A stretch of 64,000 nt of DNA from Lama glama (taxonomy: Eukaryota): positions 47,680,001-47,744,000 of the forward strand of contig CM052816.1 in NCBI GenBank assembly GCA_028534125.1, in the 5' to 3' direction. Position 1 is the first letter of the stretch, and every line of letters starts with the position of its first letter. Shown in pieces: positions 6,280 to 48,003 of the stretch. The notes under the pieces are model-generated. The model ran no database searches. It worked only from the letters and a program-made list of their open reading frames with translations, and was not told the DNA's origin. The translations under genes and the position numbers were made by a program.

Positions 6280-6480
6280 TGTAGCATGGTCTATAGAACC
6301 AGCTTGCCTGTGTTTAAATCCTGCCATTGTGCGATCTTGGGAAGAGAATTAACCTCATTGTCTCAGTTTCTTCATCTGTGAAATAGGGGTAGTTAATGGA
6401 ACATTATCCTAGTGAATAATGTATAAAACAATCAGACCAGTGTCTAGCATATATAAAGTACTCTTTAGCTATTCTTATTG
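6280..6480 (+). mobile_element. MIR SINE remnant
   Basis: MIR core ttaacctcattgtctcagtttcttcatctgtgaaatagggg, degenerate B box tttaaatcc, and 3' part cagtgtctagcatatataaagtactc. Confidence 0.85.
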
Positions 6481-6798
6481 AATTAGCTATTCTTATTAAA
6501 GTCAATGGAGGAGCATTTCCCAAGAAGAAATTTTTGATACTCTCAAATTGAGACTGGATGAGAATGAAAGGGAACAACTGAGATGTTGTTTTCACATTTG
6601 AAGGGACTGAACCAAAAGATTAGTTAGGTATTGAGTTCTCAGCTTAATAAGGAGCAAAAACTAGGGGCTCCAAAATGCTGATGCTTTTAACAAGAAAAAA
6701 AAAAGGAGTGATGATAATGTAGATTAGTTTCTGGGTGCAGAATTCAAGAAAATGTTTTTAGAATAAAAGTGTTCAGTATGTTTGTATCCTTGCAAGAC

Positions 6799-6999
6799 GT
6801 TTGGTCCTGTCCAAAATGTCCATAAGACATTTGGTTGTTAAGATATTTTGGTTATGCCAAAAGGTCCTTGAAATTTGGTCCTATCAAAAATGTCTGGAAG
6901 CATGTTTGGTCCACACCACATGGTTCTGGATAGGACCAATTATCAAGGACCTTTTGGCATGGACCAAATGTCTTATAGACGTTTTGAACAGGACCAAAC
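6799..6999. repeat. Long inverted repeat made of tandem subrepeats (probable foldback/MITE-like DNA transposon relic)
   Basis: 6799-6835 pairs with 6963-6999 (34/37) and 6854-6885 pairs with 6929-6960 (30/32). The motif TTTGGT(CC) recurs forward in the left part and reversed in the right part. Confidence 0.9.
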
Positions 7000-7994
7000 C
7001 TAACTATTTATAGCAGTGGAAAAGGAAGCAGTGGACAAAAGACTGAAGGTGTGTTGGGAGATGAGAGTGACTGGTGGAAAATGATCCCAGAGGGGACAGA
7101 AGAGATGGAGTCAGTAGCACAGAATGAGGTAGTAGGGAATCATTATTTCCAAATAGGATCTGAAGCATGGGTCCAACATTCTGGAAAGGTAAAACTAACA
7201 CAGAATTATAATCCAGGGTTTGAAATATGCTTTGTACTGAGAATACTTACACATTTGATATAGAGGAAAGGAGCAGTTGCCATGGTGGCTTAGGAGATGG
7301 GTATGGCTATCACACTGAATGACAAATTAGGGCATTAGAAAGAAATTGCAGAGCCTCAGAACCATTGGTGAAAGTTGAAAAGTATTGTGGAGATATGATG
7401 GAAACTTAAATCTAAGTGTGGAAGCTTAAGAAAGAGTGTGCTAAATCAGTCAGTTACAAGAAACTGAAGTTCTAGTGAGATTTTCAAACTTCTCCAGCAC
7501 AGGAACTAATAGAATTGGCAAAAGGAACTATCTACATAAATCTCTAAGGGATTCAGACATTATGTTTCTGTCGTGATCATGTCTTGTAGCATTGTGGTAG
7601 CATTTTGAATACCATGTATTTAATTTATATTTAAAATGCATCCAGTCATAACACACTGCATCTGGTACTATATTTCTTCAATAAAGTAAGGCATGTAACA
7701 TACTTGCTGACCCCCAAATTTCAGTCTGTGTTCATTTTCATAATTAGAAGAGAGACACGGAGAAGAATCACAAGCCATAAGTTCAGCAACTTCATTTATA
7801 ACTGACTACTTATGTCTGTCATGTTCTAAATCCCTTGGCAAAAGATGATACATATGGAAAGGTGAGACCAGGATGAAGAGTGAACAGAGGGAATGAATGG
7901 AATGGGAAGGACATACGACATTTGTTCCTCTACATATTCCAATGTGTCTTTCCCATGCCTAAACTGTTCTAATAAAATTTCTCTTCTTTGGCAG

Positions 7995-10224: not shown

Positions 10225-10900
10225 TTGCTTTAAATATTTTGTAAATAATCTATCATCTCCCAGGTGCTATAATAGGCTCTGGAAATATGTCAACAAAATA
10301 GTCAAAAATGTCTGCTCTCGTGGAGCTTATAGTCTGCTGGGAGAGGGGGGAAATGGGAGGGAAGGCAAATAATAAAATAAAAAGTAAAACATAGAGATGA
10401 TAAAACATGCTTGAGAGAAAAACGAAGCAGGAAATACAAGTAAAGTGTGTGTGCGTGCATGCGCAAGTGCACACGTGTAGGCTGGGGAAAGGGTATGGTT
10501 TTAAATGCAGTGGTCAGGAAAATTCTCACTGACAAGTGTCAGTTGAACATTGTACAATGTAAGGACTGAGGATGGCATTAGGATTCAAAGCATAAGGGAA
10601 AAAGGGAATGCAAATTCCCAGAGGCAGATAATGATTCTGGGTTCAATTCTGTTAAAGATGGAAACTCTGGGGAGTCTTGACATAGTCACATCATGATCTG
10701 ACTTGCATTTTAACAAAATCATTCTTGCTTTTGTATTGAGGGTAAATGAATCTGAAACTCTGCGTAGGTAGGTGTAGGGTGGGAAAAGTAGAAATTAAAG
10801 TCGTTAATACAGATGCAGAAGTTAAAAATCCATGATGGGTGATGGCACCTTCCAAAGCATGTGAGAAGTACAATCAAATAGGGGCAATGATGGAAGCTAA
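10225..10900 (-). mobile_element. L2 LINE remnant
   Basis: Typical antisense L2 text (ccaggtgctataataggctctggaaata...tctgctctcgtggagcttatagtct; catgatctgacttgcattttaacaaaatcattcttgct). Confidence 0.8.
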
Positions 10901-13539
10901 TAGGTAAGGGATGGAAAGAGTTGAACTCGTGGAATCCAAGAAAGAACTGTCAGAAAAGTACGAAAGGAAACAACTGTGAAAGGTAGAGGCTATTGGGCTT
11001 CACTAAGGACCCAGATGAGCTAAGACATCATGTATTTGGAGTGTCCTAAATGTGGACTGACAATGGTTGTTTGATAAATTTAGCAGTACTTCTATGCCAG
11101 TAATAGCACAGAAACTTGGTTGAAGAATTGATTCAAAGTTGTGGTTTTGCTGAGCAGGTGCAATAAATAATAACATCAAATAACTGAGATATTGATGATA
11201 GAGAGCTAAGATGGATAAAATACCCATGTGGTTCCAGGCAGGGAAAAGTAAATAAGACCAAAAGGAGGATAAATAATGAAGAAACAGGAATTAAGAAATG
11301 ATGTTTCTAAGAGTTTAAAGAGCAGATTTTGTAGGAATGAAGTTGAGACTGAAGAAAGGAAAGAGTTGTGAGAGAGTGGGATATGGGTGCTTAAGATTTT
11401 AAATGTGGAGTATCATATAAAAAATATAACTATATTGAACTTAATTTAAAGTTGATGTCTTTGCTGAATGTATCTTAGGCTATAGACAATTTTATTTCAT
11501 GATATAGATTTAACCATTCTCATTTAACTGTCGTTGTTGTTGTCATAAAATCCCAAGTTAAAGGATTCGCTTCCAGGCATTTTTGTTAGAGAGAACGTGT
11601 TCTAGTGTGTGTCAACCGAGCACCATGTGCAAAGCTGAAGGGCCCAATGCAGGAAACCTGCCCCCAACTTACAGAATCGTCTTTTCACTAGGCTTATTGC
11701 AGAGTGAGTGGATATGAGCATTTTACTCAAACTTACATAGTTCTAGGGAGTCCAAACATCATGGAAAGAGTTTTGGCTGTGATCAGACCACCAAATGCCA
11801 TCTGAATTTTTTTTCTGTTAAATAGTTTGGAATAACAATATCTACACTCACTTAGCAAAACCAAAGAAAACCAGATACAGACAAGCAAAGATGCTATTAT
11901 TTAAATAGAAATGTGTTGTTTACTACCAAATACGATTATCAAAGATTAGATAGATAGATAGACCTTAGTTTAAATTTTAAACTTAAGTTGAGTAACTCTC
12001 TTGAAGCAGGGTAATGTGGTTGACTAGCTCTGCTTATGCTTCTCCAACTCTTCTGGGCCTTTTTCTAAATCAGCAGAGCAGGGTCTGCCACATGTAGTGT
12101 TCTTTTTCAGAGGGAAAGTTGAAGCAAATTGGCTCATCTTCTCTTAGGTGAAATGTACCACTTTGAGTTTTCTTCTGGTTTCTTTGAGTTCCACTCACTA
12201 AATGTGAACCGAAGTTTTCCACTCCGCACCTGTTTTCCTGGTATTCAAGTCTGTCTTGCTGTGGATTGGATACTCACTACTCACTACATTCTAATTATGT
12301 CTAAAATCAGGACAAAATAACCTCAAAGTTTCCCTTTGATCATTAATTTCCAAGTGTCCCTCTCTAATGTAAACCTGCAAAGAATTTGGTAATTCCCCAC
12401 CGTAGAATGAAGTAAAAATTGTATGGTCCTTCAAGGTAATATTCCTGCAAGTAAATCTAGTAGCACAAACTCCTCCTTTTTCACTTAAACCAAACATCCA
12501 TTTTCCTGCATCATTAATAGAAAATTTACTAAGAGAGAGAAATTCTCATATAAGCTTAATTAGATGTTAAGAGAAATAAGCTAAAAAAAAAGAATTAATG
12601 AAAGAGAAGATAGTATCAGGTATATTTTGATGAATAATGTCTACCAATGTGTTAAATTGGAAATAAAAGAAAAGCTATGCAAAAAAAGAGGGAAAAAAGC
12701 AGAGACAAGAGAAAAGAATAAAGTTCTAGAGGTATAGAAGGAGAAAATGAAGAAAGGAATAAAAGACAACTAGGAGACATAAATTTAAAAAAAGAGAGAA
12801 TAGAAGTTTCCCACCATTAAAAAATATCATTATTATTTTACTAATAATATTAAAAACATTAAATTACAGGGTGATTAGTAAACGGAGATAAAATATTTTT
12901 TGTTAAAATTCTGTTTTCATGCCACTGTATTTTTTATTTTCTGTACTGCCATTAGTAAAAATGTCTCTAATCTCTTTCCTTATGTCATTGGATAGATTAT
13001 TTCATACAGATAAATTCATATGAAAACAGAGTAATCACACAGCATCTCAAGTACAGAGGACTCATTATGTGTGTACATTAATCAGAATATTCAATTCTAC
13101 TTGAATAAACATAATTACAAGGCTAAAATTTTTATATTCTCTGGACGCCTAACTCTTCCATCCATGCTTTAAGATTACCCACTTATTTCAAGTATAATTG
13201 GAATATCCCCCCAAATCTAATGGTTGCCTCTTTATTATAGCCATGTGCTCAGATTTACTCAAATAGAGAACAATTTCTGCAGCATCCTTTAAAAATAAAT
13301 AAATAAAGTATCTGATTGTGATTGCTACTTTGTAGGTCCAGACATTTAACGCATTCTTCCTTGGGAAAAAATAACAACAACGAGGAACAATAATCACAGG
13401 CAAAACTTTGCAACACCAATTGCCTTGAAAAGGAAACAAATATTTCCCACACACACAAGAAAAAAATACTGTCCATTCCTGTCAGCCTTTTCAACCTCTT
13501 TTGTGTTCCAAGAAATTGCGAGTAATGAAAACAGGGCAG

Positions 13540-32189: not shown

Positions 32190-33890
32190 GATGAGCATTG
32201 ATCTATAGATTTAGTGCCATTCCAATCAGAACTCCCATAGGCTTTGGTTAAAAATTGACAGATGGATTATAAAATTCATATTGAAATGCAAAAAACCAAA
32301 AATAGCTCAAGTAATTTTTTAAAAAGAACGATGTTGAGGAACTTTGACATCAAGATGTATAAAGCCACAATAATCAAGACTGTTGTATTTGGCATAAGGG
32401 TATGCAAACAAATCAATTGAACAGAATAGGCTATAAAAATTGACTCATATTTTATAACCTTAGTTTTCAACAAGACATGAAAGTAATTCAATGAGGAAAG
32501 GATAGTCATGTCAACAAATGGTGTTAGTAAGCTGGAGGAAAAAATGAATCTTTATCCTCATCTAATGCAATACACAATAATAATTTGAAAGGAACCATAG
32601 TGCTAAATACGAACTCTAAAATTATAAAACTTCTGGAAGAAAGCATAGGAAAAAAATCTTTGCAACCTTAAGGTTGTTGAAAATTTCTTAGTTAGGACAA
32701 AAAAACATAAAAGACCAAAAATAAAAGATACATTGGACAATTGGACATTATCAACATTTAAACTTCCACTCAATGACAGACACAACTAAAAAAATAAAAT
32801 ACTAACCACAGAGAAAAAGTATATTTTTTTATTTTTATTTATTTTTTGTGGGGGAGGAGATCATTAGGTATATTTATTCACTTATTATTAGCTTTTTTAA
32901 AATGGAGGTACTGGGGATTGAACCCAGGACCTAGTGCATGCTAAACATATGCTCTACCACTTGAGCTATACCCTCCCCCCCCCGAAAAGATATTTATAAT
33001 AAATGCATCCAGCTAAGGACAAGATTCAGAATATATGAAAAACTCATAAAACTAAATAATTAGAATATAAACAGTTTAGTTAAAATCAGCCAGAGGTTTT
33101 AATAGAAATATCATAAAAGAAAATAGATGGTCAATAAGGAAATAAAAAGATGTCCTTAGTCCTAAGTGAAATGCAAAGTAAAACCACAGTGAGATACAGC
33201 ACAAACCCATTAGAACAGGTAAAATATTTTAATAGTACTAAGTATAAGCAAGAATATGGAATAAGAATTCTCATACATAGTTGGTAGGGATGTACAATGG
33301 TTCAAACACTTTGGAAAGCTCTCAGGCAATTTCTTATAAAGTTAAATGTCCATTTACCACCTGATCCAGCAACTCCATCCTTAGATATTTACCCAGAAGC
33401 AATAAAAGCAGGTCTACATAAAGATTTGTTTATGAAGTTTCATAAATTTATTCATAATAGCTCCATATTAGAACAAACCACTGTCCATCACCAGGTAAAT
33501 GAATAAACATTATGATATCCATACAATGGGATCCTACTTAGCAATCACAAGGACTGAACTTCTCATACACTTAACAACTGAATAAGTATCAAAAACATTC
33601 TGCAGAGTGAAAGACTTTGGATGCAAAACAGTATATACCTTTTGATTCATTTATATGAAACTCTTAAAAAAACTAATTTAATCCATAGTGCTAGTTCACT
33701 GGTTGCCTGGGGCTAGAGAGGAGGGAGGGACAAGATAGGGAAGAACACAGGGGAATCTTTTGGGGATGTTGGAAATGGCTACATCTTGATTGAGGTGGTT
33801 GCATGGGTGGATATATATGTCAAAACTCACTAAACTGTTCAATTAAAATGAATGCCTTTATTGTATGTAAATTATACTTCAATAAAATTA
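32190..33890 (+). mobile_element. Old L1 (L1MB-like) ORF2 3' end and 3'UTR
   Basis: ORF 33297-33506 (MVQTLWKALRQFLIKLNVHLPPDPATPSLDIYPE) is the ORF2 C-terminus; ends ttgtatgtaaattatacttcaataaaa. Confidence 0.9.
32827..32983 (-). mobile_element. tRNA-Ala-derived SINE, camelid vic-1 type
   Basis: Minus strand reads ggggagggTATAGCTCAAGTGGtagagcatatgtttagcatgcactaggtcctgGGTTCAATCCccagtacctcc (A and B boxes), then an A-rich tail. Degenerate TSD gaaaaagtatattt / gaaaagatattt. Confidence 0.9.
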
Positions 33891-33942
33891 GAGACTTTGA
33901 AATTGGGAGAACAAAAAAAAATCTTAAGTGGTATCGCCAGAC

Positions 33943-36900
33943 TTTTTTTTTTTTAACATTTTCTTTTATTTTATTGAAGTATAGTTGATTTACAGTATAA
34001 CAGTTTTAGGTGTACAACTTAGTGATTCAAAAATGTTACAGATCATACTCCATTTAAAGTTATTATAAAGTATTGGGTATAGTTTCTGTGCAGTACAATA
34101 TATCCTTGTAGTTTATTTATTTTATACATAGTAGTTTGTACCTCTTAATCTTCTCCATTATTGCCCCTCCTCCTCCTTCTCCCCACTGGTAATCACTCAT
34201 TTGTTCCTTATATCTATGAGTCTGTTTCTGTTTTGTTATATTCATTCGTTTGTTTTATTTTTCAGATTCCACATATAAGTGATAACATACAGTATTGTCT
34301 TTCTCGTCTGACTTATTTCACTTAACATAGTACCCTCCAAATTCATCCATGTTGTTGTAGATGGCAAAATTTCATTAACTTTATGGCTGAGTAGTAATTT
34401 ATATCTTTATATCTCACATCTTCTTTATGCATTCACCTGTTGGTTTGCATCCATTTCTTAGAAATTGTAAACAGTGCTGCTATGCACATTGGGGTGCACT
34501 ATCTTTTCAGATTAGTGTTTTGGGTTTTTTGGATATATATCCAGGAGCGGAATTGCTGGGTCATATGGTAGTTCCGTTTTTAGTTTTTTGAGTAACCTCC
34601 ATACCGTTTTCCGTAGTGGCTGCACCAATTTATATTTCCACCAACAGTGTACAAGGGTTCCCTCTTCACATCCTCGACAACATGTGTTGTTTGTGGTCTG
34701 TTTGATGATAGCAATTCTGACAGGTGTGAGGCGATATTTCATTGTGATTTTATTTACATTTCTCTGACAGTTGGTGATGTTTTGAATCTTTTCATATGCC
34801 AGTCTTCTGCCCATTTATTAATCAAATGGCTTATTTTTTGATAATGAATTGTATGAGCTGTTATATATATTTTGAATATTAACCCCTTATCAGTCATATC
34901 ATTTGCAAATATTTTCTCCCATTCAGTAGGCTGTCTTTTTTTTTATTGATGTTCCTTTGTTATGCAAAAGCTTTTAAGTTTAATGAGGTGCCATCAGTTT
35001 ATTTTTGTTTTTGTCTCCTTTACTTTAGGAAACATTAAAAAAAAACATATTGCTACAATTTATGTCATAGACTATTCTGCGTATGTTGTAGTCTAGGAAT
35101 TTGAAGGTTTTCAAGCATTACATTTAGGTCTTTAATACATTTTGAATTTATTTTTGTGCATGATCTGACAAAATGTTCCAATTTCATTCTTTCACGTGTA
35201 GCTCTCCAGTTTTCCCAGAATCACTTATTAAAGAGACTGTCATTTCCCCACTGTATATTCATCCCTTTCTTGTCATAGATTTACTGACCATAAGTGCATG
35301 AGTTTATTTCTGAACTGTCTACTCTGTTCCATTGGTCTACGTGTGTACTTTTGTGACAATATCATACTGTTCTGATGACCGTAGTTTGTAGTATAGTCTA
35401 AAGTCAAGGAGCATGATAGCTTCAGCTCTGTTCCTCTTTCTCAAGATCCCATTGCCTATTTAGAGTCTCTTGTGTTTCCATACAAATTTTAGAATTATTT
35501 GTTCTATTTCTGTGAAAAATGGCATTAGTATTTTTTAGGGATTGCGTTGAACCTGTAGATTGCCTTAGGTAGTATGGTCATTTTAACAACATTAAATCTT
35601 CCAGTACATGAACACAATATATCTTTCCATCTGTTTGTGTTATCTTAAATTTATTTCATCAGTGTCTCATAGTATTTTGAGTACAGGTTTTTTTTTTAAT
35701 CTCTTTAGATAGATTTATTCCTAGGTATTTTTTTCTTTTTGATGTGATGGGAAATGAGATTGTTTTCTTAAATTCTCTTTTTTTCTAGTTCATTGTTAGT
35801 GTATAAAAATGCAACAGATTTCTGTATGTTAATTGTGTAACCTGTGACCATACCAAAATCATTGATGAGCTCTCGTAGTTTTTTGATGCTGTCTTTAGCA
35901 TTTTCTATGTATGCTATCATGTCATCTGCATATAGTGATAGTTTTACTTTTTTCTTTCCAATTTAGATTTTTAAAATTTCTTTTTCTTGTTTGATCCCTG
36001 TGGCTAGGACTTCCAATGCTATGTTGTATTAAAGTGGTAAGAGTGGCCATCCTTGTCTTGGTCTGGATCTTAGAGGAAATGCTTTCAGCTTTTCACCACT
36101 GAGTATGATGTTAGCTGTAGGCCTATCGTATATGGACTTTATTATGTTGATATATGTCCCCTCTACACCTGGTTTGTCAAGGGCTTTTATCATAAATATA
36201 TATTGAATTTTATCAAATGATTTTTCTGCATCTGTTGAGATCATATGATTTTTATTCTTCAGCTTATTAATGTGGTATATCATGTTGATTGATTTCTGGA
36301 TATTGAAACATCCTTGCATCCTTTGGATAAATCCCACTTGATCATGATGTATGATCCTTTTAATATATTATTGAATTTGAATTGTAATATTTTGTTGAGT
36401 ATTTTGGCATCTATGTTCATCAGTGATATTGGCCTGTAATTTCATTTTTTGTGTGTGATTTTCTTTATCTAGTTTTGATATCAGGATGATGCTGGCCTCA
36501 TAAAATGAGTTCTTTTCATGAAATCTGAATGAAAGCCTTGCCAGGTAGAGTATTCTTGTTGTACATTTTTCCCTTTTATTGCTTTAAAAGTATCATTTCA
36601 TTCTCTCCTGGCCTGCAGATTCTCTGCTGAAAAGTCAGCTTATAGCCTTATGGGAGTTCCTTTGTGTATAATTTGTTGCTTTTCCCTTGCTGCTTTTAAT
36701 AGTCTCTCTTTAACTTTTGCCATTTTAATTACATACATTATATATATCTGCCTTGTACAGAGGCTACTGTCCGTCCACTGGTTGGCAAGACTGGATCATG
36801 AAGTGGCTGGCTATAGAATCCTGGGGCATCCCAGGGCTAGTGTTGTCTCACTGGTGGGCAGAACCAGGTTTTGAGGTGGGTGGTTGTGAGGCTAGGGTTC

Positions 36901-46421: not shown

Positions 46422-48003
46422 TTTTTTTAACATTTTTTATTGATTTATAATCATTTTACAATGTTGTATCAAATTCCAGTGTAGAGCACAATTTTTCAGT
46501 TATACATAAACATATATATATTCATTGTCACATTTTTTTCTCCGTGAGCTACCATAAGATCTTGTATATATTTCCCTGTGCTATACAGTATAATCTTGTT
46601 TATCTATTCTACAATTTCGAAATCCCAGTCTATCCCTTCCCACCCTCCTCCCCCTTGGCAACCACAAGTTTGTATTCTAAGTCTGTGAGTCTATTTCTGT
46701 TTTGTATTTATGCTTTGCTGTGTTTTTTTTTCAGATTCCACATATGAGTGATCTCATATGGTATTTTTCTTTCTCTTTCTGGCTTACTTCACTTAGAATG
46801 ACATTCTCTAGGAGCATCCATGTTGCTGCAAATGGCATTATGTTGTCGGTTTTTATGGCTGAGTAGTATTCCATTGTATAAATATACCACCTCTTCTTTA
46901 TCCAGTCACCTGTTGATGGACATTTAGGCTGTCTCCACATCTTGGCTATTGTAAATAGTGCTGCTATGAACATTTGGGTGCAGGTGTCATCCTGAAGTAG
47001 GGTTCCTTCTGAATATATGTCTAGGAGCAGGATTCCTGGGTCCTATGGTAAGTCTATTCCTCGTCTTTTGAGGAATCTCCATACTGTTTTCCACAGTGGC
47101 TGCACCAAACTGCATTCCCACCAGCAGTGTAGGAGGGTTCCCCTTTCTCCACAGCCTCTTCAGCAGTTGTTGTTTGTGGATTTTTGAATGATGGCCATTC
47201 TGACTGGTGTGAGGTGATACCTCATTGTAGTTTTGATTTGCATTTCTCTGATAATTAGTGACGTTGAGCATTTTTTTGTGTGCCTATTGATCATTTGTAT
47301 GTCTTCCTTGGAGAATTGCTTGTTTAGGTCTTTTGCCCATTTTTGGATTGGGTTGTTTGGTTGTTTCTTATTAAGTCGTATGAGCTGCTTATATATTCTG
47401 GAGATCAAGCCTTTGTCGGTTTCATTTGCAAAAATTTTCTCCCATTCCATAGGTTGTCTTTTTGCTTTACTTATGATTTCCTTTGCTGTGCAGAAGCTTG
47501 TAAGTTTTATTAGNNNNNNNNNNNNNNNNNNNNNNNNNNNNNNNNNNNNNNNNNNNNNNNNNNNNNNNNNNNNNNNNNNNNNNNNNNNNNNNNNNNNNNN
47601 NNNNNNNNNNNNNACACCATTTGCTGAAGAGACTGTCTTTATTCCATTGTATATTCTTGCCTCCTTTGTCGAAGATGAGTTGACCAAAAGTTTGTGGGTT
47701 CATTTCTGGGCTCTCTATTCTGTTGCATTGGTCCATATGTTTGTTTTGGTACCAATACCATGCTGTCTTGATGACTGTAGCTCTATAGTATTGTCTCAAG
47801 TCTGGGAGAGTTATTCCTCCAGCCTCTTTCTTTCTCTTCAGTAATGCTTTGGCCATTCTAGGTCTTTGATGGTTCCATATAAATTTTATTAATGATTTGT
47901 TCTAGTTCTGTGAAATATGTCCTGGGTAATTTGCTAGGGATTGCATTAAATCTGTAGATTGCCTTGGGCAGTGTGACCATTTTAACAATATTGATTCTTC
48001 CAT
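46422..48003 (-). mobile_element. Young 5'-truncated L1 with 17-bp TSD
   Basis: TSD gtaatattttatgttct (46405-46421) / gtaatatttaatgttct (48004-48020). Long ORF2 stretches ([68 protein letters not shown]). Confidence 0.97.
47514..47613. other. Assembly gap (100 N)
   Basis: Run of exactly 100 n inside the young L1. Confidence 0.99.

Follow-up and report, generated by a model that had tools for sequence, protein, structure and literature searches.

Foldback transposons are mostly of the Mutator class, with some exceptions, and in Galileo the additional repeats of the foldback arms are described as additional transposase-binding sites (PMC4079207). Tm1 of root-knot nematodes is a Mutator/Foldback element with arms of tandem repeats, non-inverted ends, target duplications of 8-10 bp and an arm identity of about 93% (PMC3169594). 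Muta1 of Aedes aegypti is reported as a type 2 foldback MULE of the Phantom group, whose arms consist of 12-bp subrepeats; it has more than 300 non-autonomous derivatives, and its DDE transposase mobilises derivatives that keep the subrepeat arms, with target duplications of 8-9 bp (PMC5225508). Ricksha, Ricksha_0 and Ricksha_a are given as the only human MuDR entries in Repbase (PMC5753468), and their identity as MULEs has been questioned (PMC6446971). MER135 is listed as an unclassified mammalian repeat (PMC5753468); it is the source of miR-224 (PMC10671384) and is also treated in PMC10637000 and PMC13739402.

The element described here occupies positions 6788-7004 of the window, by which we mean the whole 64,000-nucleotide stretch of Lama glama DNA that was analysed. 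It is a real and striking foldback palindrome of 217 bases, to which no strand is assigned. Its extent covers both the hairpin and the repeat array, and its ends, which we infer from a linker-like left end and a candidate target duplication, are uncertain by about 2 bp. The initial annotation had placed it at 6799-6999, which describes the hairpin well, but the array runs on to the left as far as about 6788. At the right, five unpaired bases (7000-7004) follow the hairpin, and the ends are thus asymmetric.

The two arm blocks pair at 64 of 69 positions, as had been claimed (34/37 between 6799-6835 and 6963-6999, 30/32 between 6854-6885 and 6929-6960), and the TTTGGT(CC) and GGACCAA boxes lie where they had been located. 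In the whole register, set by hand, 75 of 84 positions are paired, leaving nine mismatches. Two details of the earlier description were corrected. The bulge in the left arm is present but measures 16 nt (6836-6851), not 18, since the other two positions are T-G oppositions; its sequence duplicates, in tandem, the head of the second repeat unit. The inner region had been taken for a loop of about 43 nt; a bulge of 9 nt is followed there by an 8-bp stem and, past a further bulge of 2 nt, by a 3-bp stem with a terminal loop of 6 nt (6910-6915), and the inner stem of the central unit also appears in the MFE structure.

Folding of RNA from both strands, which the initial annotation had proposed as a check, bears out the hairpin: the segment 6780-7020 reaches -117 kcal/mol (z -13.0) on one strand and -113 kcal/mol (z -12.5) on the other, and none of 200 shuffles is as stable on either strand, which rules out an effect of composition. 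Among 1270 segments of 200 nt taken over the 64 kb, the element ranks first for fold stability (-109 against a mean of -38) and, with a G+C content of only 40%, it out-folds segments above 60%. The strength of this hairpin follows from the two-armed foldback design. The direct repeats of the left half alone score 34, against a best score of 24 in 500 shuffles, all of which they beat; the array is absent from the output of Tandem Repeats Finder. Exact matches to TTTGGTCC number eight in the 64 kb, five of them inside the element, which retains two CpGs. GGACCAA occurs three times on each strand within 6788-7004; we take this motif to be a seed match of miR-133, and its copies are probably a by-product of the repeat box. 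No other strong inverted repeat of short range is present in the window. A second, weak one lies at 33859-33997 (68% identity, E 0.002) and consists of A-rich and T-rich runs between repeat ends.

The design is one of seven units of about 30 bp, three per arm round a self-paired centre (in order A1, A2, A3, A4, B3, B2 and B1). On the plus strand, A1 (6794-6823, about 30 bp) is an imperfect palindrome round the TTTGGTCC box; A2 (6824-6869) carries the 16-nt duplication of its own head, and the bulged bases 6836-6851 remain unpaired; A3 (6870-6896) ends in nine bases (6888-6896) that have no partner, its mirror unit being shorter by 9 nt. The central unit A4 (6897-6926, no strand) folds on itself, with 7/8 and 3/3 positions paired round the terminal loop. 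On the minus strand follow B3 (6927-6944), the shortened mirror of A3, and then B2 (6945-6974) and B1 (6975-6999), the mirrors of A2 and A1. The arms therefore differ in length at three places (the 16-nt duplication and differences of 9 and 2 nt). Mirror cores are identical at 21 of 24 positions for A1/B1 and 20 of 24 for A2/B2, whereas other pairs share 9 to 19; the units were thus already distinct by the time the mirror arose or was homogenised for the last time. The third mirror pair, A3/B3, shares 15/24 in its ungapped core, no better than non-partners; the low figure is due to the 9-nt gap, and at face value it counts against a foldback transposon.

This architecture, long inverted arms made of tandem subrepeats, is that of the foldback structural class. 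The left end (6788-6798, plus strand) is linker-like, overlaps the head of A1 and has no partner at the right end. The right end (7000-7004, plus strand) is also non-inverted, and its first four bases, taken with 6999, resemble the Tm1 terminal motif A2 (PMC3169594), a resemblance only. For the ends as we place them, both stretches outside the arms are thus short, unpaired and non-inverted, a sub-TIR arrangement known from some members of the Mutator/Phantom superfamily. The MITE-like members of Tm1 likewise have tandem-repeat arms, short asymmetric non-inverted ends and no coding capacity, and the Tm1 target duplications of 8-10 bp compare with a candidate of 8-9 bp here; the Tm1 unit, however, is 13-15 bp long, whereas ours is about 30 bp and itself palindromic, and Tm1 has many copies and a known transposase (PMC3169594). 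The llama element is essentially devoid of a middle domain, and the likeness to Tm1 seen here is one of design. Muta1 shares subterminal tandem repeats with linkers, 8-9-bp duplications and non-autonomous derivatives, but differs by its 12-bp units, symmetric ends and active transposase; a 7-base stretch of a Muta1 terminal primer is common to the element's box, a weak match that may be due to chance (PMC5225508). The element does not look like a Tc1/mariner MITE of the MADE1 type, with a TA duplication beside symmetric terminal repeats: no TA adjoins the paired arms at 6798 and 7000, and the two ends are not alike. The foldback reading fits better now that the non-inverted ends and the seven-unit design have been recognised.

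No target-site duplication had been seen previously. We find a candidate, decayed one of 8 to 9 bp, with its left copy at 6779-6786 and its right copy at 7005-7012 (both plus strand), identical at 6 of 8 positions, both differences being G/A; however, random flank pairs are equally good in 70% of cases at 6/8 and in 88% at 6/9, so that taken alone the candidate is at chance level and counts against a transposon. The initial annotation had spoken of an adjacent MIR and old L1. The immediate flanks look to us like a relic of an L2 LINE rather than an old L1: judged by sequence and translations, both the left flank (6480-6778) and the right flank (7013-7300) presumably belong to one minus-strand L2 copy, which is interrupted by the element and resumes in register across the two 8-mers. 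If this L2 reading holds, the 8-mers would be the target duplication. Pfam finds no family in six flank frames (three per flank), and the flanks have no convincing match elsewhere in the 64-kb window; the L2 host is thus confirmed by neither, which weighs against the proposed insertion. An old L1-like piece does lie about 1 kb left of the element; its identity to two L1 ends of the window is 59-60%. The stretch 10260-11400, which we take to be another probable L2 relic in the same orientation, does not match the flanks.

The reading that we hold to be probable is that a small DNA transposon of the foldback type, non-autonomous and most likely belonging to the Mutator/Phantom class, has left one dead copy here. 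With its long inverted arms and almost nothing between them, it would be a derivative reduced to its two arms, and the arrays of roughly 30-bp subrepeats would have served as repeated binding sites for the transposase of a larger partner element. This transposase would have excised the element and inserted it at this site, probably within a pre-existing L2 relic, giving a target duplication of 8-9 bp. After insertion, the copy would have accumulated substitutions, CpG decay, the 16-nt duplication and the 9-nt and 2-nt arm differences, and would have been dead since. The hairpin, the unit structure, the asymmetric ends and the presence in several independent DNA sets are observed, and the transposon origin, the target duplication, the L2 host and the lack of present function are proposed on that basis. 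The foldback DNA-transposon relic of the initial annotation is therefore partly supported: the anatomy fits, and the origin is still deduced from it.

Traces of the element were sought in other data. At least 19 DNA runs (nine studies, six organism labels) hold 75-96% of 24 sampled words from 6760-7040; one may be the source sample, and the others speak against an assembly artefact. No RNA run is among the holders listed, and one run with a share of 0.08 was left out of account. Self-searches found no second copy within the 64-kb window. Viral scans with three patterns returned 4, 1 and 3 loci and a metagenome scan returned 27; all 35 are single-motif matches with no array or matching hairpin. 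The lack of a second copy in the window or among these 35 loci counts against a transposon, but the viral and metagenome collections hold little mammalian DNA and their blank says little. No MULE DDE transposase lies within the element. The Pfam curated cut-off was reached by none of 149 frames searched (out of 158 non-repeat frames of at least 58 aa), with four weak sub-threshold matches, and no host exon was recognised.

Some other features of the window were recorded along the way. An 84-aa open frame at 12291-12545 (minus strand) looks exon-like and gave no useful match in PDB, Pfam or Atlas. The sole Rfam match at threshold in the window is tRNA-like (32903-32975, minus strand, 45.3 bits); we take it not for a gene but for the head of a tRNA-derived SINE of camelids. 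Between 33900 and 58500, several opposed L1 ends make up the window's long inverted pairs, and a gap of 100 N lies near 47510-47610.

No Rfam family reaches its gathering threshold over the element, known microRNA families included. The best look-alikes are MIR2630 (48.8 bits, E 5.8e-9, gathering threshold 144) and MIR2655 (gathering threshold 122). Like the element, these are hairpins of about 200 nt with repeated TTGGTCC/GGACCAA boxes, but the scores lie far below the thresholds of 144 and 122 bits, which makes this a likeness of design and not of membership. Both are, we assume, plant families derived from MITEs.

Could the element be an ordinary copy of a catalogued palindromic mammalian repeat, whether MER135-like, an unclassified MER, X_DNA or Eutr family, or a family of an uncurated library? 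This explanation overlaps with our preferred one, and we consider it very unlikely. MER135 is similar to the element in its size and its long-hairpin build. Repbase holds many unclassified mammalian families of DNA type, MER135 included (PMC5753468), and a survey of camelids reports 64-96 MITE families per genome, of which 1-3 are labelled 'Mud' (PMC8605555). However, mir-224, the model of a MER135 instance (PMC10671384), is absent among the 12 and 11 Rfam matches listed, up to E 10, although this model covers only part of the family. Element words were found in no relevant paper text, only as single 12-mers in ten papers unrelated by title, which also speaks against a catalogued repeat; repeat databases and most subscription papers lay outside this search, which is therefore no evidence of novelty. 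The element motifs are likewise absent from the supplements of PMC3500645 and PMC6446971, and no mammalian family of this kind is described in the literature searched, from which most subscription papers were missing. A search against a repeat library could well give the element a name, and its family may be contained in the camelid libraries of PMC8605555.

A local origin without any transposon is another explanation, and one that we regard as improbable: a small palindrome would have been duplicated in tandem, and one or more template switches during replication would then have copied the array in inverted orientation. Template switching is reported to give perfect stems in a single event, of 28 and up to 83 bases (PMC10710096). 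Such an origin would explain why the arms are so alike, why the window contains one copy and why no clear target duplication is seen, and the 16-nt duplication is evidence that slippage occurred here. Against it, the units do not match the present flanks. Compared with about 2.8 kb of flank, five of six units score no higher than shuffles do, and the score of the sixth, A3, is reached by 4 of 100 shuffles, so that the approximately 217 bp look inserted rather than copied locally. Several events would also be required (a palindromic seed, three to four diverging duplications and then, with one unit at its centre, the inversion of about 100 bp), and the flanks appear to be one interrupted older repeat.

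Is the close match between the arms compatible with a relic that has evolved neutrally? The arms differ at 9 of 84 positions, or 5.8% per arm after correction, and their identity (89-93%) is higher than in any of the 25 longest dispersed pairs of inverted repeats that the window contains (71-88%). Insertion at the early placental level corresponds to an expected arm difference of 20-25%. The probability of so small a difference is 0.018 at 20% and 0.0009 at 25%, a poor fit to a neutral early-placental relic, but 0.17 at 15%. Decay looks further advanced in the bulged copy and in the candidate target duplication than in the arms, on very few sites. No second MIR copy was matched in the window for use as an age benchmark. 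The high identity indicates either that the element is fairly young or that its arms were homogenised, and for the latter template switching would suffice (PMC10710096). The initial annotation had attributed the symmetry to conversion between the arms or to selection; maintenance of this kind would be called for only if the insertion is old (P 0.001-0.02), the arm identity being unremarkable in a younger one.

The same figures bear on the possibility, which we find doubtful, that the sequence is derived from a transposon and is now selected, either for its long double-stranded RNA stem (an editing substrate or a precursor of small RNAs) or for protein-binding sites in symmetrical array. For an old insertion, nine mismatches in 84 are too few, and the arms stand above all 25 of the dispersed inverted pairs compared. 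The paired copy of the duplicated A2 head also matches the other arm at 13 of 13 positions while the bulged copy has changed, though the numbers are small. There is a precedent for constraint in a palindromic family, since 179 of 504 MER135 copies are reported in conserved regions (PMC3500645). On the other side, a younger insertion or template-switch correction from arm to arm accounts for the identity with no need of selection, three length differences between the arms have been tolerated, and there is neither an Rfam family at threshold nor a host exon. The nine mismatches show no strand bias in G-U compatibility (three on the plus strand, two on the minus strand, four on neither). Selection on RNA is unsupported, given this lack of bias and the lack of a host exon in 149 frames, and the RNA hairpin suggested earlier thus gained nothing from our analysis. 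The arrayed protein-binding site, also suggested earlier, is best read as the original array for transposase binding and not as a present host function.

Within the foldback reading, the Mutator class would be the probable assignment. The Ricksha group invites comparison, no other placental elements of the proposed superfamily being catalogued (PMC5753468). A survey in which vertebrate Mutator elements are unconfirmed weighs against the class (PMC6446971). We also considered that the element might represent an uncatalogued mammalian family of Mutator/Phantom foldback MITEs, a conceivable but unlikely case. Such a family would either have been active within about the last 30-40 million years, a date obtained from the 5.8% per arm with an assumed neutral rate, or be older with arms kept matched. 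In most mammals other than bats, DNA transposons are generally regarded as quiet at that time. The ends and repeat unit of Ricksha presumably differ from those of the element.

A single relic is of little importance by itself. If orthologues were found to have changed on both sides of pairs, the locus would offer a clear example of a transposon whose arm array has been retained as a long hairpin. If it belongs to an unnamed Mutator-class foldback family, it would bear on whether vertebrates truly lack Mutator elements, the question raised in PMC6446971. It would also be relevant to DNA transposons that were active late or that entered hoofed mammals by horizontal transfer. Should the family prove to be uncatalogued, the element would define, at the level of sequence, the ends of a Mutator lineage in mammals, the existence of which has been doubted.
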